Assembly (NCBI GenBank): GCA_964397755.1
Contig: CAYNJY010000002.1
Span: 15,620-79,619, forward strand
Reading direction: 5' to 3'
DNA length: 64,000 nt
Source of the DNA: an uncultured Gammaproteobacteria bacterium
Lineage (GTDB): Bacteria; Patescibacteriota; Microgenomatia; UBA10105; UBA927
In this document: one piece after another, positions 6,697 to 56,798 of the stretch
Numbering within the stretch: the first letter of the stretch is position 1
Layout of the letters: every line of letters begins with the position of its first letter
Position numbers and translations under genes: made by a program
The notes under the pieces: generated by a model
The model's input: the letters and a program-made list of their open reading frames with translations, nothing else
The model's database searches: none
What the model was told of the DNA's origin: nothing

Positions 6697-7263
6697 ATGG
6701 ATAGACAAGAAGCGTATCAACTGGTTACCTCGTGGACGAAGAACCCAAACCTCGTCAAACATATGCTCGCGGTTGAGGCGATCATGCGGGTGCTCGCTCG
6801 GCACTTCGAGGAAGATGAGGAAGTATGGGGGATGGCTGGGCTTCTTCATGATGCGGATTACGAGATGTTTAAGGATATTGATCCCAAGAAGCATCCTTCA
6901 AGGGTTTTTGAAGAACTAGAGAAGCGCCAAGCTGATCCACGAATAATTCAAGCCATCCGAGCCCACGCCTGGGGATGGCGAGACGATTTGCCACAGCCGC
7001 AAACGAAGATGGAGTGGTCGCTTTACTGCTGCGATGACCTTTCGGGCTTCATCATCGCTTGTGCCCTAGTGCGGCCTGACCGGAAACTTGCCTCGTTGAC
7101 TGTTGAGTCTATTCGCAAGAAATGGCCACAGAAGTCCTTTGCTGCGGGTGTGAAACGGGAACAGGTCGAGTTGTGTCAAGAGAAATTAGCCATACCACTG
7201 TCTGAGTTTACAGAGCTCACGCTGGCAGCTATGCAGAGCATCCACGAAGGACTCGGTCTGTAA
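6697..7263 (+). CDS. HD-domain metal-dependent phosphohydrolase
   Basis: Carries an HD motif (LLHDADY) and is about 190 aa. Confidence 0.55.
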   Translation: MDRQEAYQLVTSWTKNPNLVKHMLAVEAIMRVLARHFEEDEEVWGMAGLLHDADYEMFKDIDPKKHPSRVFEELEKRQADPRIIQAIRAHAWGWRDDLPQPQTKMEWSLYCCDDLSGFIIACALVRPDRKLASLTVESIRKKWPQKSFAAGVKREQVELCQEKLAIPLSEFTELTLAAMQSIHEGLGL

Positions 7264-7275
7264 TTTCATGATATC

Positions 7276-7289
7276 ATGTTCTAGAACAT
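7276..7289. promoter_or_regulatory. Palindromic operator-like box ATGTTCTAGAACAT, copy 1, 11 nt upstream of rdgB
   Basis: A perfect 14-bp palindrome. The same 13-mer TGTTCTAGAACAT recurs at 15492-15504. Confidence 0.4.
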
Positions 7290-7299
7290 CGAAACATAA

Positions 7300-7920
7300 A
7301 TGCACAAACTTCTTATTGCAACAACAAATCCCGGGAAATTAGCAGAGATTAAAAGATTTTTGTCTGATCTGGCCCTGGAGCTCGTTAGCCTTAAGGATGT
7401 AGGCATTACTGAAAGAGTCAAGGAGATAGGAAAGACGTTTGAGGAGAACGCTGTCCTTAAGGCAAAATTCTATGCTGAAAAATCGGGTCTCCCTACGCTG
7501 GCTGATGATGGTGGATTTGAGGTTGATGCCCTTGGCGGTGAGCCGGGAGTCAAATCGCATCGCTGGATTCACGGCGATCGCGAAGACGAGGATGAGGAGC
7601 TTATACGGTACACATTTCAGAAAATGAAGGGTTTACCCCGAGCGAAACGAGGTGCCCAATTGCGGTTGGTGCTTGCACTCATACTACCTGATGGATCGAT
7701 CCATACTGTGACCGATGCGGCGCGAGGTGTGATCCCTCTCAAGCCTTCTAACGAGCGCGTTCCCGGTTTTCCGTATCGGTCCATTTTGTATCTTCCCGAT
7801 ATAGGAAAGTTCTACAATCACGATTTGTTAACTGACGAAGAAACAGAGAAGTATAATCACCGCAAACGGGCACTTGATGCATTAAAACCTATACTGCGAA
7901 AGTATTTGACATCAGAATGA
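7300..7920 (+). CDS. rdgB: Non-canonical purine NTP pyrophosphatase (RdgB/Ham1 family)
   Basis: The N-terminus MHKLLIATTNPGKLAE is the Ham1 signature. Confidence 0.8.
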   Translation: MHKLLIATTNPGKLAEIKRFLSDLALELVSLKDVGITERVKEIGKTFEENAVLKAKFYAEKSGLPTLADDGGFEVDALGGEPGVKSHRWIHGDREDEDEELIRYTFQKMKGLPRAKRGAQLRLVLALILPDGSIHTVTDAARGVIPLKPSNERVPGFPYRSILYLPDIGKFYNHDLLTDEETEKYNHRKRALDALKPILRKYLTSE

Positions 7921-7934
7921 TGCATACGTATAAT
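7906..7934 (+). promoter_or_regulatory. Near-consensus sigma70 promoter (TTGACA, 17 nt spacer, TATAAT) launching a roughly 270-nt 5' leader
   Basis: TTGACA at 7906-7911 and TATAAT at 7929-7934 are separated by exactly 17 nt. Confidence 0.55.
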
Positions 7935-7940
7935 ACGTTT

Positions 7941-8208
7941 ATTAACAACGTATAAAAGCGTTTACATACCGAACTTTCCCTCGGTAGAGTCCTTCGACAA
8001 GCTCAGGATGAACTGCTTGAAGGCACGCAGCTTTCCGGAAGTACTACAACAGGAGTATATAAGGAAAGACGGGATTTCCCGTTATAGAAAAAGAGTTATG
8101 TCGCTATTGACGCGGAGTAACTCATGAGGTTAAGCAGGTGACTGCGTAGCAAAGAAAAGTGGCACCACGAGAACACCTCGTCTTTTCATAAAAAGGAGGT
8201 GTTTTTTT
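7941..8208 (+). promoter_or_regulatory. T-box riboswitch-like leader of the histidine-phosphatase + serS operon
   Basis: Antiterminator: helix A1 GAAAAG (8154-59) pairs with CTTTTC (8182-87), a 7-nt bulge UGGCACC sits at 8160-66, and helix A2 ACGAG (8167-71) pairs with CTCGT (8177-81). A competing terminator runs 8173-8208, with stems at 8173-79 / 8196-8202 and inner 8182-86 / 8191-95, followed by U7. Its 3' arm sequesters the AGGAGG SD. Confidence 0.5.
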
Positions 8209-8844
8209 GTGGGAAAAATGTATCTTGCCAGACACGCGGAGTCAGTCGCCAACACGCAAGGTATGTATCAAGGGCAGACGTACGATACTGGTTTATCAAA
8301 GCTTGGTTTGCAACAAGCGCAATCGCTTGGCCGTCGCTTTCATGGCCTTCACCTTGATCAGGTCGTGACCTCGCCGCTTTGGCGTACGCGGTTGACTGCG
8401 GCAGTCGTAGCAAGAGGGAAGAATATTCCACTTGTGGTAGATAGTCGGATCAGCGAAACAAACCACGGAGCGTGGGAGGGATTGCGGAAAACTTCGGTAG
8501 CGGCCCGCTGGCCGAGGTTATATCGGCAATGGCTACGGTTACCATCGACGGTTCATTTTCCCGGCGGTGAGGCGTTTAGAGAGACGCGCGCACGAGTGCT
8601 TGAGTGGTGGAAATGTGCATTGCGCTATCCTGGCACCCAGCTAGTGGTTACTCATGACAACATTTTGCGGATCATTGTTGCCCAAGTTTTGGGGTTACCG
8701 CTTGATAACATCTGGCAATTCCATGTGTATCCGACCGCGATCACCACAGTTGCCGTTACAGGTGGTAAACCCACTATTAGAACTCTGAACGACACTAGGC
8801 ATGTAGAGGAGTGCGACCAGCGCCTTGCAAAGCACGCGCTTTAG
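8209..8844 (+). CDS. Histidine phosphatase superfamily (phosphoglycerate-mutase-like) protein; possibly a phosphoserine-type phosphatase
   Basis: Has the RHAES catalytic motif near the N-terminus. The start is GTG at 8209 or ATG at 8218. serS follows after 15 nt. Confidence 0.7.
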   Translation: MGKMYLARHAESVANTQGMYQGQTYDTGLSKLGLQQAQSLGRRFHGLHLDQVVTSPLWRTRLTAAVVARGKNIPLVVDSRISETNHGAWEGLRKTSVAARWPRLYRQWLRLPSTVHFPGGEAFRETRARVLEWWKCALRYPGTQLVVTHDNILRIIVAQVLGLPLDNIWQFHVYPTAITTVAVTGGKPTIRTLNDTRHVEECDQRLAKHAL

Positions 8845-8859
8845 ACGTATTCTAAACGT

Positions 8860-10125
8860 ATGTTGGATAGTACATTCATACGAGAACATTTGGAATTGTG
8901 CAAGCAGGCGGCCAAAGACAAGGGTCGAGATATGGACTGGAATGGGCTGCTTTCTCTGGATGATCAGAGAAGGGAGCTCATTGGGAAGGTGGAGGGGCTG
9001 AGAGCGGAGAGGAATGCAATCTCCAATACACAATCTCCAATATCCAATACTAGGGGAAAAGAGATCAAGAAGGAATTGAAGGCATTAGAAGAAGAATTGC
9101 GGGGGGTTGAGGAGAAGTTTGGACTGTTAATGCTGACGGTTCCCAACGTACCGGACAAAAGCGTGCCGGTTGGGAACGATGCATCGGGAAATGTGGAAGT
9201 GAAAAAATGGGGCAAGGTGCCAAAAGTTGATTTTCCCGTCCGCGACCACATAGAACTTGCAAAATCACTGGACCTTATCGACTTTGAACGCGGCGCCAAA
9301 GTGGGTGGTGCGCGGGCATACTTCCTCAAAAACGAGGCCGCCCAGATGGAGCTAGCTCTCATGTGGTATACCCTTCACAAGCTTGTGGGGAAAGGGTATA
9401 TGCCGCTTATCGCTCCATCGTTGGTTCGCGAGTTTACACTCTTTGGCAACGGTCAATTTCCGTGGGGTCGGGAAGAGGTCTATAGGGTTGAGAAAGACGA
9501 TATGTACTTGGCCGGGACTGCAGAGGTTCCCGTAACCGCATACTTCGCGGACGAAGTCCTTGCCGAAAAAGACTTGCCCAAAAAGCTTGTGGCCTTCTCC
9601 CCCTGTTTCCGTCGCGAGGCCGGAAGCTACGGTAAGGATACCAAAGGGGTTTATCGACTACACCAATTCAACAAGATTGAACAAGTAATTGTCTCAACCA
9701 ACGATGTGAACAACTCTCTTACTCTTCATGAGGAGTTATTAGCTAATGCAGAAGAAATTTTGCAAGACCTCGAACTGCCGTACCGGGTGATGCTCATGTG
9801 CACGGGCGAGATGGGCGAGCCGCAGGTGAAGAAGTATGACGTAGAAACGTGGATGCCTAAACGCCGGGCACCAGACGGCGCCCTGGGGGCATATGGGGAG
9901 ACGATGTCGAACTCATTCATGGGGGATTTCCAAGCTCGTAGACTTAAGATCCGGTACAAAGCCAAAGACGGAACGGTTATGTTCTGCCACACGCTCAATA
10001 ACACCGCGATTGCTTCGCCGCGGATTCTTATCGCCATCTTTGAAAACTATCAGCAGAAAGACGGATCTATTAAAATTCCGAAGGTGCTCCAATTCTTCTT
10101 AGGAAAGAAAGAAATTCGTCGATAA
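8860..10125 (+). CDS. serS: Seryl-tRNA synthetase
   Basis: An N-terminal coiled-coil arm plus the class-II core (421 aa). Confidence 0.9.
   Translation: MLDSTFIREHLELCKQAAKDKGRDMDWNGLLSLDDQRRELIGKVEGLRAERNAISNTQSPISNTRGKEIKKELKALEEELRGVEEKFGLLMLTVPNVPDKSVPVGNDASGNVEVKKWGKVPKVDFPVRDHIELAKSLDLIDFERGAKVGGARAYFLKNEAAQMELALMWYTLHKLVGKGYMPLIAPSLVREFTLFGNGQFPWGREEVYRVEKDDMYLAGTAEVPVTAYFADEVLAEKDLPKKLVAFSPCFRREAGSYGKDTKGVYRLHQFNKIEQVIVSTNDVNNSLTLHEELLANAEEILQDLELPYRVMLMCTGEMGEPQVKKYDVETWMPKRRAPDGALGAYGETMSNSFMGDFQARRLKIRYKAKDGTVMFCHTLNNTAIASPRILIAIFENYQQKDGSIKIPKVLQFFLGKKEIRR
9017..9052 (+). repeat. About 14-nt tandem duplication (caatctccaataca / caatctccaatatc / caatact) inside the serS N-terminal arm, encoding ISNTQSPISNT
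   Basis: A direct tandem repeat is read off the sequence. The reading frame is preserved. Confidence 0.6.
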
Positions 10126-10148
10126 TTTTTCAAGGCCTTATGTAACTC

Positions 10149-10793
10149 ATGCGTTGGCTTTCCTATATTTATCCCCAAACCATTGCTCGCTTCACATCTG
10201 CCTACAACAAAGATATTCGAGTGGTAGAGGAACATGGTCGATACAAAGTCCTTGTCAACGGCTCGCCGCAGTCAGGGCTGTATATTAAAAAGCTCTGGAT
10301 CCATGCGTTTGCACGAGCACCTCTTCCAGATACGTCAGGCGTGAAGAACATCCTTATTCTTGGTATTGGCGGTGGCACAGTCATCCATCTAGTATCGAAA
10401 AAGTATCCATCCGCTGATATCGAGGCAGTCGATATAGATCCAACAATGGTTGAAATTGCAGACACATACTTTGGGTTGAGAAAGGTTCCAAATCTCGCTG
10501 TCGTTGTTGAGGATGCGAAGCGTTTTGTCGCAAAGAGTACTTCGAAGAAGCGCTATGACATCATCGTTGTCGATATTTTTGTCGGCAGTACAGTCCCAGA
10601 TTTTGTTGCAAAAAGCCCGTTCCTTCAACGCCTTGCCGGTATGCGGAGAGATGAGGGCATTGTCATACTTAATTACTTACGAGAGAAAGAGTACCTGATG
10701 CGCTCAGACGTACTTGATAAAACGCTCCGCACGATATTTTCAGATGTGCGTGATACGAAATGGAACAATAACCGCGCGTTCTTCGTTCGATAG
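10149..10793 (+). CDS. Spermidine-synthase-like / class I SAM-dependent methyltransferase fold protein
   Basis: Contains a Rossmann GIGGG motif (ILILGIGGGTVIH) and an acidic VDID; about 214 aa. Confidence 0.5.
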   Translation: MRWLSYIYPQTIARFTSAYNKDIRVVEEHGRYKVLVNGSPQSGLYIKKLWIHAFARAPLPDTSGVKNILILGIGGGTVIHLVSKKYPSADIEAVDIDPTMVEIADTYFGLRKVPNLAVVVEDAKRFVAKSTSKKRYDIIVVDIFVGSTVPDFVAKSPFLQRLAGMRRDEGIVILNYLREKEYLMRSDVLDKTLRTIFSDVRDTKWNNNRAFFVR

Positions 10794-10823
10794 TCTCCTT
10801 CTTTGTGATAAAATTGTTTCATC

Positions 10824-13577
10824 ATGTTTAAGTTTCTTTCGAAGCTCCTTGACACGAACGAAAAGGAGCTCCGAAGTCTACGCGCAGTTGTCGAGAAGAT
10901 TAACAGCCTCGAGAATGAAACGAAAAAGCTCAAGGACGCTGACTTTGCAAAGAAAACTGTACAGCTGAAAGAGCGGTTGACAAGCGGTGATGCCCTTGAT
11001 GACGTTCTTCCCGAGGCGTACGCACTTGTCCGAGAAGCGGCTCGCCATACGATCGGAGAACGCCACTATGACGTACAATTGATCGCGGCTATCGCGCTCC
11101 ACCAAGGGAAAGTGGCAGAGCAGAAAACAGGAGAGGGAAAGACCTTGTCCGCTACCCCCGCGTTATATCTCAACGCGCTCACCGGTCGGGGAGTTCACCT
11201 CGTCACCGTCAACGACTACCTTGCCCGACGGGATGCCGGATGGATGGGGTCAGTGTTTTACCTTCTGGGGTTGTCAGTTTCCGCAATCATTAGTGATCAA
11301 TCATTCCTGTACGATCCGACATTCGAGGACAAAAGCTCCGTAGACTGGAGACTGAGACATTTGCGTCCGATTAGTCGCAAAGAGGCGTATCAAGCGGATG
11401 TCACCTACGGGATAAACAGTGAATTCGGGTTTGACTACTTGCGCGACAACATGGCAACAGACATGAGCCAGCTCGTGCAGCGAGACTACCACTTTGCGAT
11501 TATCGACGAAGTGGATTCGATTTTGATTGATGAAGCTCGTACCCCGCACATCATTTCCGCGCCGGCAGAGGAAGCCACCCACAAGTACTACGAGTACGCG
11601 AAACTGGTTGGGAAGCTAACGCCGCAGGTGGACTTTGTCATTGACGAGAAGCTTCGTACAGCCCACCTGACTGATCACGGGATCGTGAAAGTGGAAAAAA
11701 TGATGGGATTGGGGAACATCTATGAGAGCGACTTTGAGACCGTGCACCACATAGAAGCAGCGCTCAAAGCGAGTACGCTTTTTCGCAAGGAAAAAGATTA
11801 CATTGTAAAAGATGGTCAGGTTGTTATCGTTGATGAGTTTACCGGCAGACTTCTTCACGGCCGAAGGTTTAGCGAAGGAATTCATCAGGCGATTGAAGCC
11901 AAAGAGGGGGTAACGATCCAGCAGGAAAGCCGGACGCTTGCGACGGTTTCACTCCAAAACTACTTTCGTATGTACGAGAGGCTTTCCGGTATGACCGGAA
12001 CCGCGGCAACCGAGGCAGAAGAGTTTCGGAAAATCTACGGACTCGATGTGGTCGTCATCCCCACGCACCGGCTGATGGTTCGTCAGGATTTTTCCGATAG
12101 CGTCTACAAAACGACGCGCGCCAAGTACACGGCGGTCGTCGGCGACATTACTGAGCACTACAAGCGCGGTCAGCCGGTGCTGGTCGGAACGACGTCGATT
12201 GAAAAGAACGAACTCCTGAGCGACTTTCTCAAACGCAAAGGAATTCCTCATCAGCTACTCAACGCGAAGAACCACCTCAAGGAGGCAATGATTATCGCAG
12301 AGGCTGGTAAAAAAGGAGCGATTACTGTGGCAACCAATATGGCTGGACGCGGCGTGGACATTATCCTCGGCGGTTCCCAAAAGGAGAAGTGGGAGGTAGA
12401 AAGTGAGCAGGAATGGGAGCGGGAGACGAAAGATTGGCAGAAACGACACGATGAGATTGTTGCCGTAGGCGGCCTTCACGTCATCGGCACCGAGCGGCAT
12501 GAGTCGCGGCGGATAGACAATCAACTTCGCGGCCGGTCTGGCAGACAAGGCGACCCCGGGTCGAGCAGATTCTTTGTCGCGCTCGATGACGACATTATGC
12601 GGCTCTTTGGCGGAGATCAGGTAGCTCGCCTCATGACCATCTTCAAGCTTCCGGAGGATGTGCCGCTTGAGCACCAGATGGTTTCCAAGTCCATTGAGCA
12701 AGCGCAGGTGAAAGTCGAAGGATTTCACTTTGACAGCCGTAAGCACCTCGTTGAGTACGACGATGTGCTCAATAAGCAGCGTGAGATCGTGTACAAACGC
12801 CGAAGGAAAATTTTGGAAGGAGAAAGCCAAAAAGAGGCAATATTGAACAAAATCCAAACTGAAATTGCAAACATTGTATCCGTTTATGCAGGAGCTGAGA
12901 ATGCGATAGAGAGAGAAAAAATTGTCGGAGAATTTGCCTCTATTATTCCGTTTGATCCATCGTCTCAAGAGCAGCTTCAGAAACAGTTGCAGCAGGCACA
13001 CACAGTTTCCGACATTGCTGACTTTTTAGCAAAGATTAGCGCCGACATGTACGAACAGCGAGAGAAACAGGTGTCAAGTGAGATTACGCGGCAAATCGAG
13101 CGCTGGGTGAGTTTGCAGGTCATAGATAATCTCTGGATGGATCATTTGGATGCCATAGATGATTTGCGTGAGGGTATTGGACTTAGAGGTTATGGCCAGC
13201 GGGATCCTCTCGTTGAGTACAAAAACGAAGCCTTCACCATGTTCGAGCGTCTCATTGCAACTATCGATAAGGAAATCGTCTACCGGATTTATAAGGTACA
13301 GGTCCAGACGGCCCCCACCTCCGCGATGGCTTCGGCGGGCAAGCCCCAAGCCCCAACTCTTCCCCAAGTTGTACCATCTACGGTTCCAGCAGGAGGCAAT
13401 CCGCAACCAAGCGTCATTCGTCGGATCACACACGTCCAACCTTTACCCAATCCCCAAACCCTCACCCCCAACCTCTTAAAAAAACTCGGTCGCAACGATC
13501 CCTGTCCGTGCGGAGCGAAAAAACCAGATGGCACTTCAAAAAAGTATAAACATTGTTGTTATCCAAAGTATGGATAA
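10824..13577 (+). CDS. secA: Preprotein translocase ATPase SecA
   Basis: 917 aa with DEAD-like motors and a C-terminal Zn finger (CPCGAKK...HCC). Confidence 0.95.
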   Translation: MFKFLSKLLDTNEKELRSLRAVVEKINSLENETKKLKDADFAKKTVQLKERLTSGDALDDVLPEAYALVREAARHTIGERHYDVQLIAAIALHQGKVAEQKTGEGKTLSATPALYLNALTGRGVHLVTVNDYLARRDAGWMGSVFYLLGLSVSAIISDQSFLYDPTFEDKSSVDWRLRHLRPISRKEAYQADVTYGINSEFGFDYLRDNMATDMSQLVQRDYHFAIIDEVDSILIDEARTPHIISAPAEEATHKYYEYAKLVGKLTPQVDFVIDEKLRTAHLTDHGIVKVEKMMGLGNIYESDFETVHHIEAALKASTLFRKEKDYIVKDGQVVIVDEFTGRLLHGRRFSEGIHQAIEAKEGVTIQQESRTLATVSLQNYFRMYERLSGMTGTAATEAEEFRKIYGLDVVVIPTHRLMVRQDFSDSVYKTTRAKYTAVVGDITEHYKRGQPVLVGTTSIEKNELLSDFLKRKGIPHQLLNAKNHLKEAMIIAEAGKKGAITVATNMAGRGVDIILGGSQKEKWEVESEQEWERETKDWQKRHDEIVAVGGLHVIGTERHESRRIDNQLRGRSGRQGDPGSSRFFVALDDDIMRLFGGDQVARLMTIFKLPEDVPLEHQMVSKSIEQAQVKVEGFHFDSRKHLVEYDDVLNKQREIVYKRRRKILEGESQKEAILNKIQTEIANIVSVYAGAENAIEREKIVGEFASIIPFDPSSQEQLQKQLQQAHTVSDIADFLAKISADMYEQREKQVSSEITRQIERWVSLQVIDNLWMDHLDAIDDLREGIGLRGYGQRDPLVEYKNEAFTMFERLIATIDKEIVYRIYKVQVQTAPTSAMASAGKPQAPTLPQVVPSTVPAGGNPQPSVIRRITHVQPLPNPQTLTPNLLKKLGRNDPCPCGAKKPDGTSKKYKHCCYPKYG

Positions 13578-13636
13578 AAGAAAAAGCAAGCGCAGTCCTC
13601 CTGAAATCGCTGCACCAGTATCCCTACCGGAACCAT

Positions 13637-13665
13637 TTGACATATTAGCATATATATGCTAATGA
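13637..13665 (+). promoter_or_regulatory. vapB promoter (TTGACA at 13637-42) overlapped by a 20-bp perfect palindrome ATTAGCATATATATGCTAAT (13644-13663); likely RHH autorepressor operator
   Basis: The palindrome is read off the sequence, 11 nt upstream of the RHH gene start. Confidence 0.45.
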
Positions 13666-13674
13666 TGTCTTACC

Positions 13675-13896
13675 ATGCAGCTTATTCGAACCACTCTCCG
13701 CTTAAATGAGGCGCTTAAGAAAGAAGCGGAGCGTCTCGCTCTCGAGCAGGAGAAAACGCTACAGGATATTTTCAATGACGCACTGGAGCGCTATCTTGCA
13801 CAGAAAGCCCGCAAGGAAGCGACGAAAATTCGTTTTCGCACCCACCGGCTCGGCGCACCGCTTGACCGCTTGACCCGCGCGGATTACTACCGGTAG
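13675..13896 (+). CDS. Ribbon-helix-helix (CopG/VapB-like) antitoxin
   Basis: 73 aa with an RHH-like N-terminus, located 3 nt upstream of the PIN gene. Confidence 0.55.
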   Translation: MQLIRTTLRLNEALKKEAERLALEQEKTLQDIFNDALERYLAQKARKEATKIRFRTHRLGAPLDRLTRADYYR

Positions 13897-13898
13897 CC

Positions 13899-14321
13899 AT
13901 GATTCTTATAGATTCAAATATTCTCGTTTACGCCATCAATCGGGATTCTCCAAAACACAAGCGAGCCAAAGCATATCTGGCAGACCACCAGAAAGAACTT
14001 GCCCTGGCACAGCAAAATATTTTGGAGACCGTGTGGGTGCTCACACACCGAAAGTTTACTCACCCTATGACTTCCCGCGCAGCACTTGATGCAGCAAGCC
14101 GAATTGCGACGGTGGCTACCCTTATTACGCCGGTGAGAGCCACATATTATCTCGCGTGCGACCTCATCAAACAGCACCGTTTGTCAGGAGATCGCGTTTT
14201 CGATGCGTACCTTGCAGCAACAATGCTTACCAATGGAGTGACGTCGATTGCTACCGATAATGTGGGTGATTATGCCGGGTTTCGTGGAATTGCCGTGATC
14301 AATCCGTTTTCTTCGTCCTAG
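13899..14321 (+). CDS. vapC: PIN-domain toxin (VapC-like)
   Basis: MILIDSNILVYA... is a PIN N-terminus with acidic residues; 140 aa. Confidence 0.7.
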   Translation: MILIDSNILVYAINRDSPKHKRAKAYLADHQKELALAQQNILETVWVLTHRKFTHPMTSRAALDAASRIATVATLITPVRATYYLACDLIKQHRLSGDRVFDAYLAATMLTNGVTSIATDNVGDYAGFRGIAVINPFSSS

Positions 14322-14970
14322 CCAGACGCGCGTCTTTGAGGTATTCAACATCCCCCGCGACGTCTGACTTACGCCATACGTGATGTCGCAGCGCTGTGGT
14401 CACAAAGATATTACGATGGTAGCGGCAGGTACCGTAGCGGTGAATTGCCTTAAGGTGGGCAGGGGTGCCGTAGCCGGCGTTTCGTTGCCATTTATACTCA
14501 GGAAATTCGCGGTGGAGCTCACGCATGAGGCGGTCGCGTTCGACTTTAGCGACAATGCCGGCAAGAATTACCTCGGGAACTGTGGCATCGGCGTCAACAA
14601 GGGTCCTTACTCTATGAGTCTTTCCTTGAATACGTCCGAGCCTGAGCCGGCCGTCAACTATGTAGGTATTTGCCTCAACCCGTTTGATGAGGGCTCGAAT
14701 CGCTTCGCGGTTGGCTCTTTGGATGCCGCGGTTGTTGATCTTCCTTGAAGAAACAACTTCGATGTTGATTGTAGCCTTGAGTTTTCTGAGTGCCTGATAG
14801 ATTCGCCGGCGATGGGCGGGAGAGAGGAGTTTGCCGTCACGAATTTTTAAGCGAGCAAGGCGAGCCACCTTGACTGGCGGGCAGTTGAGCACTACTGCTA
14901 GAGCCACCAGCGGTCCGGCCAGCGCCCCACGACCAGATTCATCAATTCCACACACTATCATCTTCTCCAC
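14299..14970 (-). CDS. rnhB: Ribonuclease HII
   Basis: Carries the RNase HII motif GIDESGRG(A)LAGP(L)V. Confidence 0.85.
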   Translation of the reverse strand: MEKMIVCGIDESGRGALAGPLVALAVVLNCPPVKVARLARLKIRDGKLLSPAHRRRIYQALRKLKATINIEVVSSRKINNRGIQRANREAIRALIKRVEANTYIVDGRLRLGRIQGKTHRVRTLVDADATVPEVILAGIVAKVERDRLMRELHREFPEYKWQRNAGYGTPAHLKAIHRYGTCRYHRNIFVTTALRHHVWRKSDVAGDVEYLKDARLARTKKTD

Positions 14971-15012
14971 CCAGGTGCATTATATGGTAAAATAAACATC
15001 CGGAGGTGGGGT

Positions 15013-15438
15013 GTGGATCAGAGAGTTCTTGATTTTCTCGCCAAGCATCGCGTATGCTCGTTGACAACGTTACTTGCCGACGGCTCGCCGCATGCGGCGG
15101 CGCTACACTATTCACACAGAAGTGAACCGCTGACCCTCTATTTTTCTACCGAGAACACCAGTAAAAAATGTCAGGCCCTTCTGGATGGAAAGCCGGGGAA
15201 AGCGTCGGTAGTTGTGGGCTTTAGCGAAGAGGAGTGGGTGACCTTGCAGATGGATGGAGAGGTACAGGTCGTTGAGGATGCAATATTGCCTAAGGTTCAT
15301 GAACTCCACTACGCTAAACATCCAGACTCGGCAAAATATAAAGACGATCCGGCGACAGTATTTTTAGTATTCACTCCCTCTTGGTGGCGCTCCACTGATT
15401 TCAACACAACTCCTCCAACGATCCTTCAGTCAACATAA
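15013..15438 (+). CDS. Pyridoxamine 5'-phosphate oxidase-like FMN-binding split-barrel protein
   Basis: A PNPOx-like domain of about 140 aa. Confidence 0.55.
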   Translation: MDQRVLDFLAKHRVCSLTTLLADGSPHAAALHYSHRSEPLTLYFSTENTSKKCQALLDGKPGKASVVVGFSEEEWVTLQMDGEVQVVEDAILPKVHELHYAKHPDSAKYKDDPATVFLVFTPSWWRSTDFNTTPPTILQST

Positions 15439-15484
15439 TTTTTCACCACACAGCAACGTAAAGCAAAACCACCGCGCGAGCTCT

Positions 15485-15510
15485 GTTATCGTGTTCTAGA
15501 ACATGATAAC
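15485..15510. promoter_or_regulatory. 26-bp near-perfect palindrome GTTATCGTGTTCTAGAACATGATAAC (copy 2 of the TGTTCTAGAACAT box) upstream of kamA
   Basis: The only mismatch is the g15491/t15504 pair. The core is identical to the box at 7277-7289. Confidence 0.45.
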
Positions 15511-15652
15511 AAGGAACGGATCACTATGCTGGAGATCAATACTACCGTACGTATTCTATTCCGAAGAAAAAAATTACGAAGAAAAAAAATTGACCTGTTG
15601 ACATTTCAAAAATTTCTTACTACTGTTAATTCATTGTTTGTTGTCACACACC

Positions 15653-16789
15653 ATGACGATCGTCGTTCCCCCGTTGCAAAATTCTCCGGATAGTAAACAA
15701 TCGCCACTTCGTCCCCGAGGAACCGAGGTGATGTTGCCACATGGAGGACTGCCGGAAATTTTTCCTCCATACCTTGCAGACCTCATCGAGCGCACCGGCG
15801 GACCCGATGGACCAATCGGCAGACAATTTGTAGCCCGACCAAACCTCGAGAGTCGCTACTTTAAAGTGGGGATGAAAGATCCGCTCATGGAAGATTACCA
15901 CGAGGTTGCCCCGGGACTGGTCTATAAATATAGAAGCAACAGTAAAGACAAAAAGAAAAAGGGAGACTTTCCGTATAACGGCCGAGCGCTCTGGACGATC
16001 ACTCGCCACTGCGCCGCCTACTGCCGGTTCTGCACACGAGGCCGCGAAGTTGGGATTCCTCCAGGAAAAGAAGGTGGAAGTGCGGCGGCACTTGCCCATA
16101 CCCCGCATCTTCTCATGGACCAGATTGAGGAGACTCTCACGTTTATTACCAATGAACCGGGGCTTAACGAAATTATTCTCTCTGGCGGAGATCCCATGAC
16201 CGTGAATCCTAAAATACTTCAGTATGTCTTGGGGAAACTTGGAGAGCTCCAGCGGTTAGGGAAGTTGCGCATCATTCGCATCGGCACACGCGTGCCGGTC
16301 CATAATCCGCTCCTTTTTCGTGACGAACACTACGAGGCAGCGAAACAAGTCAGGAACCTGCGGCTCATGGTCCACATCAACCATCCGTTTGAACTCACGC
16401 CGCAAACGCGAGGGGTGCTTGAAAGATTCCGTAGGGAAGTCGGGGCGGTTGTCATGAGCCAGTCAGTGCTCCTCAAGGGCGTTAACGACAGCGCCGAGAC
16501 GCTGTATACACTCTTTTCCGAGCTCGCTTCCGAAGGAATCATCCCTTACTACGTTTTCCAAAACGATCCGGTCTATTGGGCGAAGCACTTCACGGTTCCT
16601 ATAAAACGAGCGATTAAAATCTGGCAGAAACTCCGGCCGAGATTATCTGGGGTGGCGGCCACCGCGCGTTTCGTCATCGACGTCCCCCAAGGTTACGGCA
16701 AAGTTCCGTTGCCAGAGGGCGCTGCCTGGAATATTGATTACAACAAAGGCTATCACGACTTCAAAGGAAAACGCTTTTCGCTTGAATAA
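15653..16789 (+). CDS. kamA: Lysine 2,3-aminomutase family radical SAM protein (KamA/EpmB-like); start ambiguous (ATG 15653 or ATG 15731)
   Basis: Has the CAAYCRFC radical-SAM cysteine triad in KamA/EpmB context. Depending on the start, length is 352 or 378 aa. Confidence 0.75.
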   Translation: MTIVVPPLQNSPDSKQSPLRPRGTEVMLPHGGLPEIFPPYLADLIERTGGPDGPIGRQFVARPNLESRYFKVGMKDPLMEDYHEVAPGLVYKYRSNSKDKKKKGDFPYNGRALWTITRHCAAYCRFCTRGREVGIPPGKEGGSAAALAHTPHLLMDQIEETLTFITNEPGLNEIILSGGDPMTVNPKILQYVLGKLGELQRLGKLRIIRIGTRVPVHNPLLFRDEHYEAAKQVRNLRLMVHINHPFELTPQTRGVLERFRREVGAVVMSQSVLLKGVNDSAETLYTLFSELASEGIIPYYVFQNDPVYWAKHFTVPIKRAIKIWQKLRPRLSGVAATARFVIDVPQGYGKVPLPEGAAWNIDYNKGYHDFKGKRFSLE

Positions 16790-55002: not shown

Positions 55003-55914
55003 ATGACAAATAAACCAAGTGTTAGTGTCGTTATTCCGAACTGGAATGGTGTGTACCTCATGAAAAAGCACCTGTCGAAGGTAATCGCAACTGTTCCTGG
55101 TGCAGAGGTAATTGTCAGTGATGATGCCTCACGTGATGGTTCGGTTGAGTGGCTGCGGAAAAACTTTCCAAATGTTAAGGTCGTAGCGAATAAAGATCGT
55201 CAGGGTTTTGCCGGCAACGTCAATCGGGGGGTCGCCTACGCAATAGGCGATATTATTATACTTCTCAATACAGATGTTGAGCCGGAGGTAGGATTTCTCG
55301 CGCCACTTCTGAAACATTTTTCCGACAAGAGCGTCTTTGCCGTTGGATGCCTGGAAAAAAGTTACGAACATGACGGCGTCGTCCTTCGAGGGCGGGGAGA
55401 GGCGAGATGGAGAAAAGGTTTGTTTGTACACTCTCGGGGAGACGTTGGTAAGACCGATACTGCATGGGTATCGGGAGGAAGTGGGGCATTTCGTAAATGG
55501 ATATGGGATGAGCTTGGCGGCATGGATCCACTGTTTAATCCTTTTTACTGGGAAGACATAGATCTTTCCTATCGGGCGCTCAAAGCTGGCTACAAACTTG
55601 TTTTTGAGCCAAAAAGTATCATTGGACACTACCATGAGGAAGGAAAAATTAAGCGCGAGTTTACTCCGGAAGAGGTCAAGCGCATAGCATACCGCAATCA
55701 ATTTACGTTTATTTGGAAAAACCTTTCCGATCCGTTGACACTCCTCGCGCACTGTCTCTTGACACCAATACGATTGGTGCGGGCGATGGTAGGAAGAGAC
55801 ATCCTTCTCTTCCAAGGATACCTTGCTGCTCTTTGGCAATTGCCAAAGATCCTTCGTTCTCGCAGGAACTCGCAAAGGTTTTGGCGGCGGAGGGATCGGG
55901 AGTTGTTCGGATGA
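55003..55914 (+). CDS. GT2 glycosyltransferase
   Basis: VSVVIPNWNG...VSDDASRD...DxD. Confidence 0.75.
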   Translation: MTNKPSVSVVIPNWNGVYLMKKHLSKVIATVPGAEVIVSDDASRDGSVEWLRKNFPNVKVVANKDRQGFAGNVNRGVAYAIGDIIILLNTDVEPEVGFLAPLLKHFSDKSVFAVGCLEKSYEHDGVVLRGRGEARWRKGLFVHSRGDVGKTDTAWVSGGSGAFRKWIWDELGGMDPLFNPFYWEDIDLSYRALKAGYKLVFEPKSIIGHYHEEGKIKREFTPEEVKRIAYRNQFTFIWKNLSDPLTLLAHCLLTPIRLVRAMVGRDILLFQGYLAALWQLPKILRSRRNSQRFWRRRDRELFG

Positions 55915-56798
55915 AGACATGCTACTTGTGTAGAAAATCTACCGTTCCCTTTTTAGACAAGAACGGATATACCATCATCCGCTGTTCCTCGTGTGGTCTT
56001 GAGCAGACGATACTTGAAGAAGACTACCAGAGATTCGTAAAGCGCCATTACTCGCAGGGGTACTTTACCGGAGATCCCAAGCGCAGTGCTTACGTAGATT
56101 ACAAAGATGACAAAAAGCTCATCGTGCGAAACATGAGAAAAATTCTTTCTAGAATTTCAATGCTTAAGCCTTCAGGGAGGCTGCTTGATGTCGGTTGTGC
56201 GTTCGGATTTTTTATTGAGCTATCCAGCACATTTGGGTACGACGCGTACGGATTTGACGCATCAGACTTCGCGATACGGCACGCAAAGAAGAACGGTATA
56301 GGTGAGCGCGTGCGCGTTGCGACAATCGATTCCGTCGGATATAAACAAGGGTCGTTCGATGTCATTACCCTTCTGGATGTTTTTGAACATCTTGAAGACC
56401 CGGCAAAAAATCTTCGGAAGCTACGAAAGCTGCTGCGAGATGATGGTATCATTGTGATTGCAACAGGAGATACAGAGAGTTTTGCTGCGCGAATTCTTAA
56501 ACGCCGATGGACATTTTATATCCCTCCACAGCACCTCTTCTTTTTTAACAGACGTACACTCGGGATACTCCTCGAAGAATCAGGGTTTACGCCTCAAGCG
56601 TGGTTTCGCGTTGGGAAGTGGTTGAGTCTTCGATACGTCTTACATCTTGCTCGAACCACGGGGGAAAGCAGACTTGCTCAGAGACTTTTCCCGTTTGTGG
56701 CGCGAAGTCCTTTGGGGAGCGTGCCACTCTATCTTCCGATGCGGGACAACATCGTTGTTATAGCGAAAAAATCCCATGAAGGCACGCACGTGGTTTGA
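55911..56798 (+). CDS. Class I SAM-dependent methyltransferase with N-terminal Cys4 zinc ribbon
   Basis: A CxxC...CxxC N-terminus and motif I (LLDVGCAFGFF). An ATGA overlap couples it to the upstream GT2 gene. Confidence 0.7.
   Translation: MKTCYLCRKSTVPFLDKNGYTIIRCSSCGLEQTILEEDYQRFVKRHYSQGYFTGDPKRSAYVDYKDDKKLIVRNMRKILSRISMLKPSGRLLDVGCAFGFFIELSSTFGYDAYGFDASDFAIRHAKKNGIGERVRVATIDSVGYKQGSFDVITLLDVFEHLEDPAKNLRKLRKLLRDDGIIVIATGDTESFAARILKRRWTFYIPPQHLFFFNRRTLGILLEESGFTPQAWFRVGKWLSLRYVLHLARTTGESRLAQRLFPFVARSPLGSVPLYLPMRDNIVVIAKKSHEGTHVV

Follow-up and report, generated by a model that had tools for sequence, protein, structure and literature searches.

A 28-bp palindrome paired with a TrpR-like gene in Microgenomates: a candidate promoter-operator module

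Two palindromic boxes in a 64,000-nucleotide stretch of contig CAYNJY010000002.1 (positions 15,620 to 79,619; hereafter the window), one upstream of rdgB (site 1) and the other upstream of a kamA-family gene (site 2), probably represent a 28-bp promoter-plus-operator module that would belong to a Microgenomates-specific member of the Trp-repressor family, as judged by comparing sequences across genomes. What is observed in the window is a local view of a clade-wide pairing, in Microgenomates, between a TrpR-family regulator and a 28-bp site. We found no description of this motif-regulator pairing in the searchable literature. To our knowledge, almost nothing is known about transcriptional control in Patescibacteria (also called the Candidate Phyla Radiation, CPR), which are not growable alone and encode very few regulators.

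The boxes were first noticed in an initial annotation of the window, which reported a perfect 14-bp palindrome at 7276-7289, a 13-mer shared with a 26-bp near-perfect palindrome at 15485-15510, and the improbability of such a coincidence within 8 kb. The 14-bp palindrome (ATGTTCTAGAACAT) is present and lies centrally in site 1, and the shared 13-mer is part of a longer exact match, the 17-mer TATCATGTTCTAGAACA, which is the longest word common to both sites (at 7272, and reverse-complemented at 15492). The second palindrome is also real, but it had been drawn two bases too short and measures 28 bp, with 13 of 14 arm pairs matching (Table 1). The argument from improbability fared less well, as the window contains other pairs of identical words (146 pairs of 13-mers and 3 of 17-mers in total) and perfect palindromes of at least 12 bp occur at chance level (20 observed, 15 expected). 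A shuffle test on the motif, allowing up to 2 mismatches, was nevertheless significant (7 matches in the window against 1.1 expected; 0 of 100 shuffles). Further near-matches in the window, at 56377 and 58691, lie inside open reading frames (ORFs) and are chance-like. Site 1 scores 16 and site 2 scores 19 of 20 conserved positions, with a background of at most 13, and both sites are unchanged in a near-identical 12.5-kb Logan contig (ERR3478686). Statistics drawn from within the window are weak, and repeat counts overstate significance; the motif is considered non-random because copies of it exist in other genomes.

These copies were found by a metagenome scan with the 17-mer as query, in which each match was extended to 28 bp and compared with the consensus TGTTATCATGTTCTAGAACATGATAACA. 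The scan returned 72 loci (these and the other loci compared are given here as L numbers), and the number of mismatches to the consensus is bimodal, with 34 sites at 0-4 mismatches (18 of them perfect) and a chance class at 6-11 in 11 free positions. Two matches on viral contigs were considered as true sites and rejected as chance-type half matches. The exact 28-mer of site 2 also occurs in L100, and the asymmetric arm of site 1 (…AACATCGAAACA) is found exactly in L111, L113, L115 and L160. Across lineages the invariant frame is TGnTAnCATG-N8-CATGnTAnCA, and the centre is variable yet always palindromic, with CTAG, TTAA or TCGA on the dyad. The sequence TGTTCTAGAACA, which had been taken as the functional core, corresponds to this variable centre, whereas the conserved part consists of the outer arms, TGnTAnCATG, of the 28 bp. 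No instance of the generic frame TGTT-N4-TGTT-N4-AACA-N4-AACA occurs in 1.3 Mb of sequence around SecA in other bacteria. These results support a motif that is real, conserved, dyad-symmetric, of the protein-binding type and located next to many genes.

Two other 28-bp palindromes were encountered in the loci compared. A near-palindrome located 5' of greA in a Gottesmanbacteria relative (L082 425-452, TGTTTAGATTGTATTAACAATCTAAACA) has the TGTT…AACA ends of the motif but not its CATG frame, and a G+C-rich perfect palindrome just 5' of rmuC in Microgenomates GW2011_GWC1_43_11 (L168 8781-8808, CCTCCCCCTGCAGTACTGCAGGGGGAGG) bears no relation to the motif.

In many contigs, two sites 480-500 bp apart bracket a conserved gene for a 147-amino-acid protein (hereafter the regulator). 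In L092, L105, L111, L113, L115, L117 and L160 these sites lie 5-8 bp before the ATG and 2-24 bp past the stop codon, and the arrangement holds for co-directional and convergent next genes alike. More generally, a site is located 3-8 bp before the regulator ATG in L092, L105, L111/L160, L113, L115, L117, L128, L162, L166, L171 and L172 (3 bp in L128 and L166), 23 bp before it in L168 and 239 bp upstream in L141. The regulator gene occurs in at least six different neighbourhoods and is bracketed on both sides whatever its neighbours. The asymmetric subtype represented by site 1 directly precedes the regulator ATG in L113, L115 and L160.

The initial annotation had proposed a search for helix-turn-helix (HTH) regulators by comparative genomics, and this route leads to the 147-amino-acid protein, a member of the Trp-repressor family. 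Its scores with the Pfam family Trp_repressor (PF01371) are 45-54 bits against a cut-off of 27, and no other Pfam family exceeds its gathering cut-off. By sequence, the protein matches the YerC/HisR-type structures 3FRW, 3KOR and 3G1C, a distant relation, and its scores with the NCBIfam YerC/YecD equivalog (TIGR02531) are 27.2 and 30.4 bits, below the cut-off of 42.2. An AlphaFold model (predicted local distance difference test, pLDDT, 82) matches only TrpR and TrpR-like PDB entries by fold (residues 1-100, template-modelling (TM) score 0.7-0.8) and has two additional C-terminal helices; the tail of the protein is rich in Trp and Arg. The family spans 982 clusters at 50% identity (E<=1e-10), with most top matches 145-152 amino acids in length, and where taxon labels are given the homologues are assigned to Gottesmanbacteria, Microgenomates or Patescibacteria.

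The site and the regulator change together. Regulators that share 47-56% identity are bracketed by their own symmetric site variants (Table 1); overall, five symmetric variants pair with five regulator lineages. Because the palindrome flanks the TrpR-like gene and changes with it, we interpret the boxes as probable TrpR-like binding sites combined with a promoter, and not as LexA boxes. The initial proposal of an operator for a dimeric repressor is thereby strengthened with regard to a dyad-symmetric conserved site and a regulator that is bracketed by the motif and changes with it, but not with regard to rdgB and kamA as conserved targets (see below).

Additional support for selection on the site comes from a copy of the palindrome located in frame inside an ATP-dependent DNA ligase gene, in the linker that follows the GDLG motif. 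Copies of the window type in L124 and L153 are identical at 28 of 28 positions, whereas the coding DNA on either side shares only ~60-65% identity (a by-eye estimate on the alignment), and L167 carries an L162-type variant at the same codon position. The linker is equally long in those ligase homologues that are closest but lack the site. The ligase site tracks the lineage variant in place, and we therefore argue that selection acts on the DNA site.

The arms of the motif also have the appearance of promoter elements. The invariant arm positions T1, G2, T4, A5, A8 and T9 coincide with those of an extended -10 element, TGnTAnnAT, and the lineage-variable positions 3 and 6 are the non-critical 'n' positions of this element. 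Every lineage variant (TGTTATCAT, TGTTACCAT, TGCTACCAT) fits the extended -10, and in each of them the predicted start, 7 nt downstream of the element, would be a purine on the dyad. A promoter scan of the regulator site in L160 returned TTGAAC-17-TATCAT with an upstream TG. For 31 sites there is only one downstream gene; each of the 10 asymmetric sites among them keeps the element in the gene-distal arm and has its defects in the proximal arm (p = 0.002). Site 1 obeys this asymmetry: in its upstream arm, TGATATCAT, the extended -10-like element is intact and aimed at rdgB, and its proximal arm, TGTTTCGAT, which is of the degenerate TCGAAACA subtype, lacks the critical A. At site 2 the right arm, which reads leftwards, is perfect and the left arm carries one change (TATCGT).

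A further arrangement was noted in the leaders that precede the regulator ATG (L117 1263-1290, L092 1616-1643, L105 6014-6041 and L162 9966-9993). If transcription started at the centre of the palindrome, the leader would begin with GAACAUG and contain a mini-ORF of 3-6 codons (MIT, MVT or MITLRL, each followed by a stop codon) that ends 0-5 nt before the regulator AUG or overlaps it. The upstream AUG is not universal, as it is missing in the TCGAAACA and AAGATAACA variants. This mini-ORF could be a near-leaderless initiation-reinitiation arrangement that replaces a Shine-Dalgarno sequence.

The placement of 36 sites relative to genes was classified. Twenty-one are in short co-directional junctions (30-60 bp), 3 are in divergent regions and 5 face gene ends only; the remaining 7 comprise 3 within crude ORF calls (2 DNA ligase, 1 FemAB-like), 2 with only a single start-facing gene and 2 that are unplaceable. 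Most sites lie 3-60 bp ahead of a start codon. Besides the regulator, the genes faced by sites encode a Ser_hydrolase protein followed by a UvrD-PDDEXK helicase-nuclease, SpoU, a 2'-5' RNA-ligase-like protein, DnaG, APH, FemAB, CutA1, a zinc-type dehydrogenase, PurP, Tmk, PPDK and SNase, as well as a cupredoxin whose gene follows one called CsoR-like by eye only. The associations that recur across lineages are RmuC-regulator-hydrolase-UvrD, cupin/APH/CutA1, alanyl-tRNA synthetase (AlaRS) and DHFR. In L173 the regulator is followed by a gene of the NUDIX family, which, like rdgB, cleans the nucleotide pool. Adjoining genes that act on DNA or the nucleotide pool are rdgB, NUDIX, DNA ligase, DnaG, UvrD/PDDEXK, RmuC and Tmk, and a DNA/nucleotide theme among these neighbours is suggestive but non-exclusive. 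The radical-SAM gene that is divergent from the regulator in L111/L160 was considered as a counterpart of kamA and set aside, as it is not a KamA homologue.

Solo sites were also seen, between the cupin and AlaRS genes in L157 (3054-3081) and beside a GNAT gene in L097 (13332-13359). At these positions L171 and L162 hold the site-regulator-site arrangement, a difference that could reflect regulator loss or gain through recombination between flanking copies.

Table 1. Sites, neighbouring genes of the window, and site variants in other loci.
Feature	Location	Strand	Remarks
Site 1	7269..7296	+	28-bp palindrome copy TGATATCATGTTCTAGAACATCGAAACA
Site 2	15484..15511	.	28-bp palindrome copy TGTTATCGTGTTCTAGAACATGATAACA
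HD-domain gene	6697..7263	+	ends just 5' of site 1; Pfam HD, NCBIfam HDIG
Spacer carrying site 1	7264..7299	+	36 bp, lineage-specific (comparison with relatives)
rdgB/Ham1 (XTP/dITP diphosphatase)	7300..7920	+	Pfam Ham1p_like 1.9e-39; NCBIfam; faced by intact arm of site 1
PNPOx-like gene	15013..15438	+	Pfam PNPOx_N; ends 45 bp 5' of site 2
55-amino-acid ORF, uncertain reality	15526..15693	+	called in Logan copy; starts 14 nt past site 2
KamA-family radical-SAM gene	15638..16789	+	NCBIfam KamA-family matches below equivalog cut-offs; Pfam Radical_SAM
Site variant TGTTACCATGTTTTAAAACATGGTAACA	L162-165
Site variant TGCTACCATGATTCGAATCATGGTAGCA	L168-170
Site variant TGTTACCATGTTTCGAAACATGGTAACA	L171
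Site variant TGTTACCATGTATCGATACATGGTAACA and TTTTAAAA-centred site	L172
Ligase-internal site	L124 1857-1884; L153 4071-4098		in frame, encodes CYHVLEHDN; window type
Ligase-internal site	L167 1497-1524		same codon position, encodes CYHVLKHSN; L162-type variant

The window comes from a bacterium of the Microgenomates (Patescibacteria) that is similar to Gottesmanbacteria. The secA gene lies between sites 1 and 2, and its product has its best match (71% identity) in a metagenome-assembled genome (MAG) of Patescibacteria and its next matches in Microgenomates; homologues of RdgB that share 70-81% identity carry the label Candidatus Gottesmanbacteria. The gene content of the window is of the housekeeping kind, and neither a tRNA/att site nor an Rfam family was found in it.

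Site 1 lies between the stop codon of the HD-domain gene (TAA, 7261-7263) and the rdgB ATG, with 10 nt between its 14-bp box and that ATG. The closest relatives, L083, L084 and L085, have no spacer, as their HD gene runs into rdgB (TAATG), and in L007 and L011 their spacing is 0-15 bp. Because the relatives have overlapping genes and lack the spacer, site 1 is placed on a lineage-specific 36-bp insertion. Phylogenetic footprinting revealed no site in 80 SecA-anchored genome loci. The initial annotation had regarded a lack of conservation in orthologous intergenic regions as evidence against its proposal, and sites are indeed absent at rdgB and kamA in relatives whose RdgB is ~80% identical. 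Because these relatives lack sites there, rdgB and kamA are not conserved members of a regulon at this degree of divergence. In the RdgB relatives, the region upstream of kamA has other neighbours and no motif, and alignment there is uninformative.

Site 2 does lie upstream of the gene that had been called KamA/EpmB, but at a distance of 126 bp (TTG start) or 141 bp (the ATG called in the Logan copy), and the arm that is better preserved is directed away from kamA. The ORF that begins within this interval is preceded by AAGGAA, has no family match and runs across the start of kamA. Which gene site 2 would serve is ambiguous, because its perfect arm is directed leftwards, in antisense to the PNPOx-like gene, and the weakened arm reads towards the small ORF and kamA. 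The kamA gene is a doubtful target.

Several other features of the window were recorded in passing. At 13638-13672, TTGACA precedes a perfect 20-bp palindrome (ATTAGCATATATATGCTAAT, 13644-13663), after which comes TAATGA, just 5' of a 73-amino-acid ORF (13675-13896) and a PIN-domain gene (13899-14321); this region resembles a promoter-operator by which a VapBC-type toxin-antitoxin pair would regulate itself. The 3' end of rdgB contains a perfect sigma-70 promoter, TTGACA-17-TATAAT (7906-7934, within the region 7906-8208), followed by an untranslated leader of ~270 nt and a His_Phos_1 gene (GTG at 8209, AAAGGAGG at 8192). This leader is without an Rfam match and could be an undescribed leader or riboswitch. 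The Logan contig differs from the window by only 26 substitutions over 12.5 kb, and 20 of these fall within 46 bp of the PNPOx-like gene (15261-15306 in the window, L001 10216-10261; EVQVVEDAILPKV versus EVRVVESSELPQV), a cluster that is a local recombination tract or strain-variable patch. Another perfect 20-bp palindrome, TCTTTGGCAATTGCCAAAGA, is located at 55830-55849 inside an ORF (55713-56798).

We propose the following mechanism for the 28-bp module. Each arm, TGnTAnCATG, would serve as half of a dyad-symmetric binding site for the 147-amino-acid TrpR-like protein, and each arm read inward would also be an extended -10 element from which transcription could start at the central purine with no need for a -35 element. 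Binding of the regulator would exclude or block RNA polymerase, probably in response to a small-molecule co-repressor and possibly through tandem dimers. When the regulator is free, the gene-distal arm would drive a short-leader transcript into the gene. Site 1 may have arrived on the 36-bp insertion between formerly overlapping genes and would give rdgB its own regulated start, and site 2 could fire either towards the small ORF and kamA from the weakened arm or leftwards from the perfect arm.

A number of observations weigh against this interpretation. With regard to the regulator, a tblastn search detected no TrpR-like gene in the 64-kb window, and because of this absence a cognate regulator is assumed to be encoded elsewhere in the same genome. 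A Pfam search of about half of the window ORFs (most of the small ones and, of the large ones, those outside ~33-62 kb) yielded no protein near the sites that could be an HTH candidate. In L173 the regulator gene lacks bracketing sites, and this same locus contradicts a residue-to-base rule that we considered, in which a recognition-helix Glu is paired with T at position 6. With regard to the sites, the centre is perfectly palindromic and yet differs between the two sites of one genome (L172), which is unusual for an uncontacted spacer, and no site was found at rdgB or kamA in three Gottesmanbacteria relatives (four loci; RdgB 78-80% identical). With regard to promoter function, the asymmetric sites are not all independent, since four share the TCGAAACA subtype, and the leaders would be 15-25 nt in length and mostly lack a Shine-Dalgarno sequence. 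Hexamers resembling a -35 element are not enriched upstream of the sites, a result that is compatible with an extended -10 element but is no evidence for one. The sites that face only gene ends (of which 3 are directly past the regulator stop codon, 2 of them between convergent genes) and the three within the ligase ORF would yield antisense or truncated transcripts from a simple promoter. Finally, the genes adjoining the sites have no clear common function.

Some of these observations would also fit a palindrome that moves. It is possible, although we think it unlikely on balance, that the 28-mer is a portable cassette that inserts between and within genes and that, together with the bracketed TrpR-fold gene, it constitutes a REP/RAYT-like system (repetitive extragenic palindromic, REP, sequences and their associated transposases) built on a repressor fold. 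If so, regulon membership would be gained and lost by the movement of a 28-36 bp module, and the regulator gene would relocate between its own sites. A selfish or mobile palindrome that inserts in junctions and ORFs in the manner of REP/REPIN or Rickettsia palindromic elements is in our estimation an unlikely explanation, though one still to be reckoned with; here the site-gene-site unit would be a cassette moved or lost by recombination, and the TrpR-like protein an associated binding factor instead of a physiological regulator. The discrete 36-bp insertion that carries site 1 between genes that overlap in relatives fits such mobility, as does the resemblance of this insertion to the regulator-upstream subtype beyond the 28 bp. 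So do the in-frame ligase copy, the bracketed regulator in at least six neighbourhoods, the solo sites in L157 (cupin/AlaRS, compared with L171 and L162) and L097 (GNAT, compared with L162), the functional heterogeneity of adjoining genes and the palindromy that is perfect through a variable centre. In contrast, the 147-amino-acid protein consists of a TrpR fold plus two helices and has no transposase, nuclease or recombinase domain, and no recombinase was found among the window ORFs scanned with Pfam, about half of the total. Sites are also sparse: the 64-kb window has 2, and 20-kb loci have none besides the bracketing pair. Moreover, the ligase site is fixed at one codon position, tracks the lineage and is conserved at 28/28 positions in diverged DNA, and the arm asymmetry is oriented with respect to genes.

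The sites of the TrpR-like protein might instead be not promoters but roadblocks, insulators or landmarks that organise the chromosome (parS- or matS-like), which we judge rather improbable. Sites in co-directional junctions (21 of 36), at the 3' ends of convergent genes and inside an ORF are consistent with this role, which accounts for gene-end and in-ORF sites better than a promoter does and may coexist with a promoter role. The very high conservation (18 perfect 28-mers) and the bracketing of the protein's own gene also agree with it, and the extra C-terminal helices could mediate higher-order assembly. However, the match of invariant arm positions to an extended -10 element, the gene-oriented asymmetry and the location of sites very near start codons argue against a purely structural role, and clustering in one chromosomal region is not evident.

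A role as an RNA hairpin, acting as an intercistronic terminator, processing site or stabiliser, is very unlikely. Site 2 does fold into a 12-bp stem (-16.5 kcal/mol, z = -3.5) and many copies lie just past stop codons, but site 1 is not stable (-3.9 kcal/mol, z = +0.9). A terminator scan was negative at both sites, where the stem is A+U-rich and no U-tract or T run is present. Recurrent arm mismatches (A·A, A·C) break pairing of the transcribed strand, for example in L134 and the AAGATAACA variants, and a hairpin would require neither a sequence conserved between genomes nor a loop that is palindromic nor co-change with a DNA-binding protein.

A variant of the LexA (SOS) operator, at which the initial annotation had hinted on account of GTTC/GAAC half-sites, is scarcely credible even though these half-sites are present and several neighbours (rdgB, DNA ligase, DnaG, UvrD/PDDEXK, RmuC, Tmk, NUDIX and SNase) handle DNA or the nucleotide pool, given that the GTTC..GAAC centre is not conserved (TTTTAAAA, TTCGAA and ATCGAT centres occur in other lineages), that the consistently bracketed gene is TrpR-like and not lexA, that the window contains no GAAC-N4-GTTC box, and that lexA and recA adjoin none of the sites examined. 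The LexA motif of Patescibacteria is itself reportedly a direct repeat. The literature cites the LexA study of Patescibacteria along with others that report LexA motifs of the direct-repeat kind.

If the boxes are indeed TrpR-family promoter-operators, then a specific and widespread regulator family, with hundreds of clusters at 50% identity, would be paired with a defined 28-bp site, and its regulons would become readable from metagenomes. Arms that double as extended -10 elements, and a module that is found on an insertion and inside an essential gene, suggest an unusually compact wiring of regulons in streamlined genomes. The neighbours that act on DNA and the nucleotide pool hint at, without proving, a non-LexA control circuit for DNA maintenance.

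The proposed module can be compared with several known systems. In E. coli the trp operator covers the -10 element. The motif likewise overlaps a predicted -10 element, and the regulator gene appears to be autoregulated, as is trpR, judging from the positions of its sites. The two systems are also alike in their membership of the Trp-repressor family (by Pfam and predicted fold) and in a dyad-symmetric operator of the form TGT…ACA with YYRR on the dyad (CTAG in both the motif and the trp operator). An 8-bp sub-site periodicity in the motif (TGTT at 1/9, AACA at 17/25) recalls the tandem binding seen for E. coli TrpR in PDB entry 1TRR, which is among the fold matches of the regulator model. They differ in the length of the site (28 bp versus 20 bp) and in the half-site, which is TGnTAnCATG in the motif, and the regulator has two extra C-terminal helices and the Trp/Arg-rich tail. 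Copies of the motif are also found on both sides of the regulator's own gene, in intercistronic junctions and in an ORF, and the Microgenomates host offers no tryptophan pathway context.

HisR (YerC/YecD-type, Firmicutes) is the closest solved relative by both sequence and fold (3G1C, 3KOR, 3FRW), and, like the regulator as proposed here, it has a palindromic operator and is frequently autoregulated. The HisR motif is cacTTTA-N6-TAAAgtg and its regulon consists of histidine genes, whereas our motif and its neighbours are unrelated to histidine and the regulator reaches only 27-30 bits with the NCBIfam YerC/YecD model (cut-off 42.2). The operators of TrpR (motif TGTAcTnGTnnACnAgTACA) and HisR are palindromes that begin with TGTA, and autoregulation is seen for about half of the hisR genes (PMC9413887).

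The REP/REPIN-RAYT systems and the Rickettsia palindromic elements resemble the present case in their dispersed intergenic palindromes, here with two copies that bracket a co-changing gene, and Rickettsia palindromic elements additionally occur as in-frame copies within protein-coding genes. The protein, however, has a Trp_repressor HTH fold instead of that of a Y1 (HUH) transposase, with only TrpR relatives recovered by Pfam and fold search, and the palindrome has a low apparent copy number and a ligase copy that is kept in place across lineages. The CIRCE/HrcA system is similar in that a long, near-invariant palindrome lies over the promoters (predicted ones in our case) of several operons in small genomes, but it differs in regulator family and in sequence, and in CIRCE the arms are separated by a non-palindromic spacer of 9 bp and the regulon is a coherent heat-shock one. 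Overall, the pairing of motif and regulator resembles known TrpR-type repressor/operator systems, yet it differs from them in site and layout.

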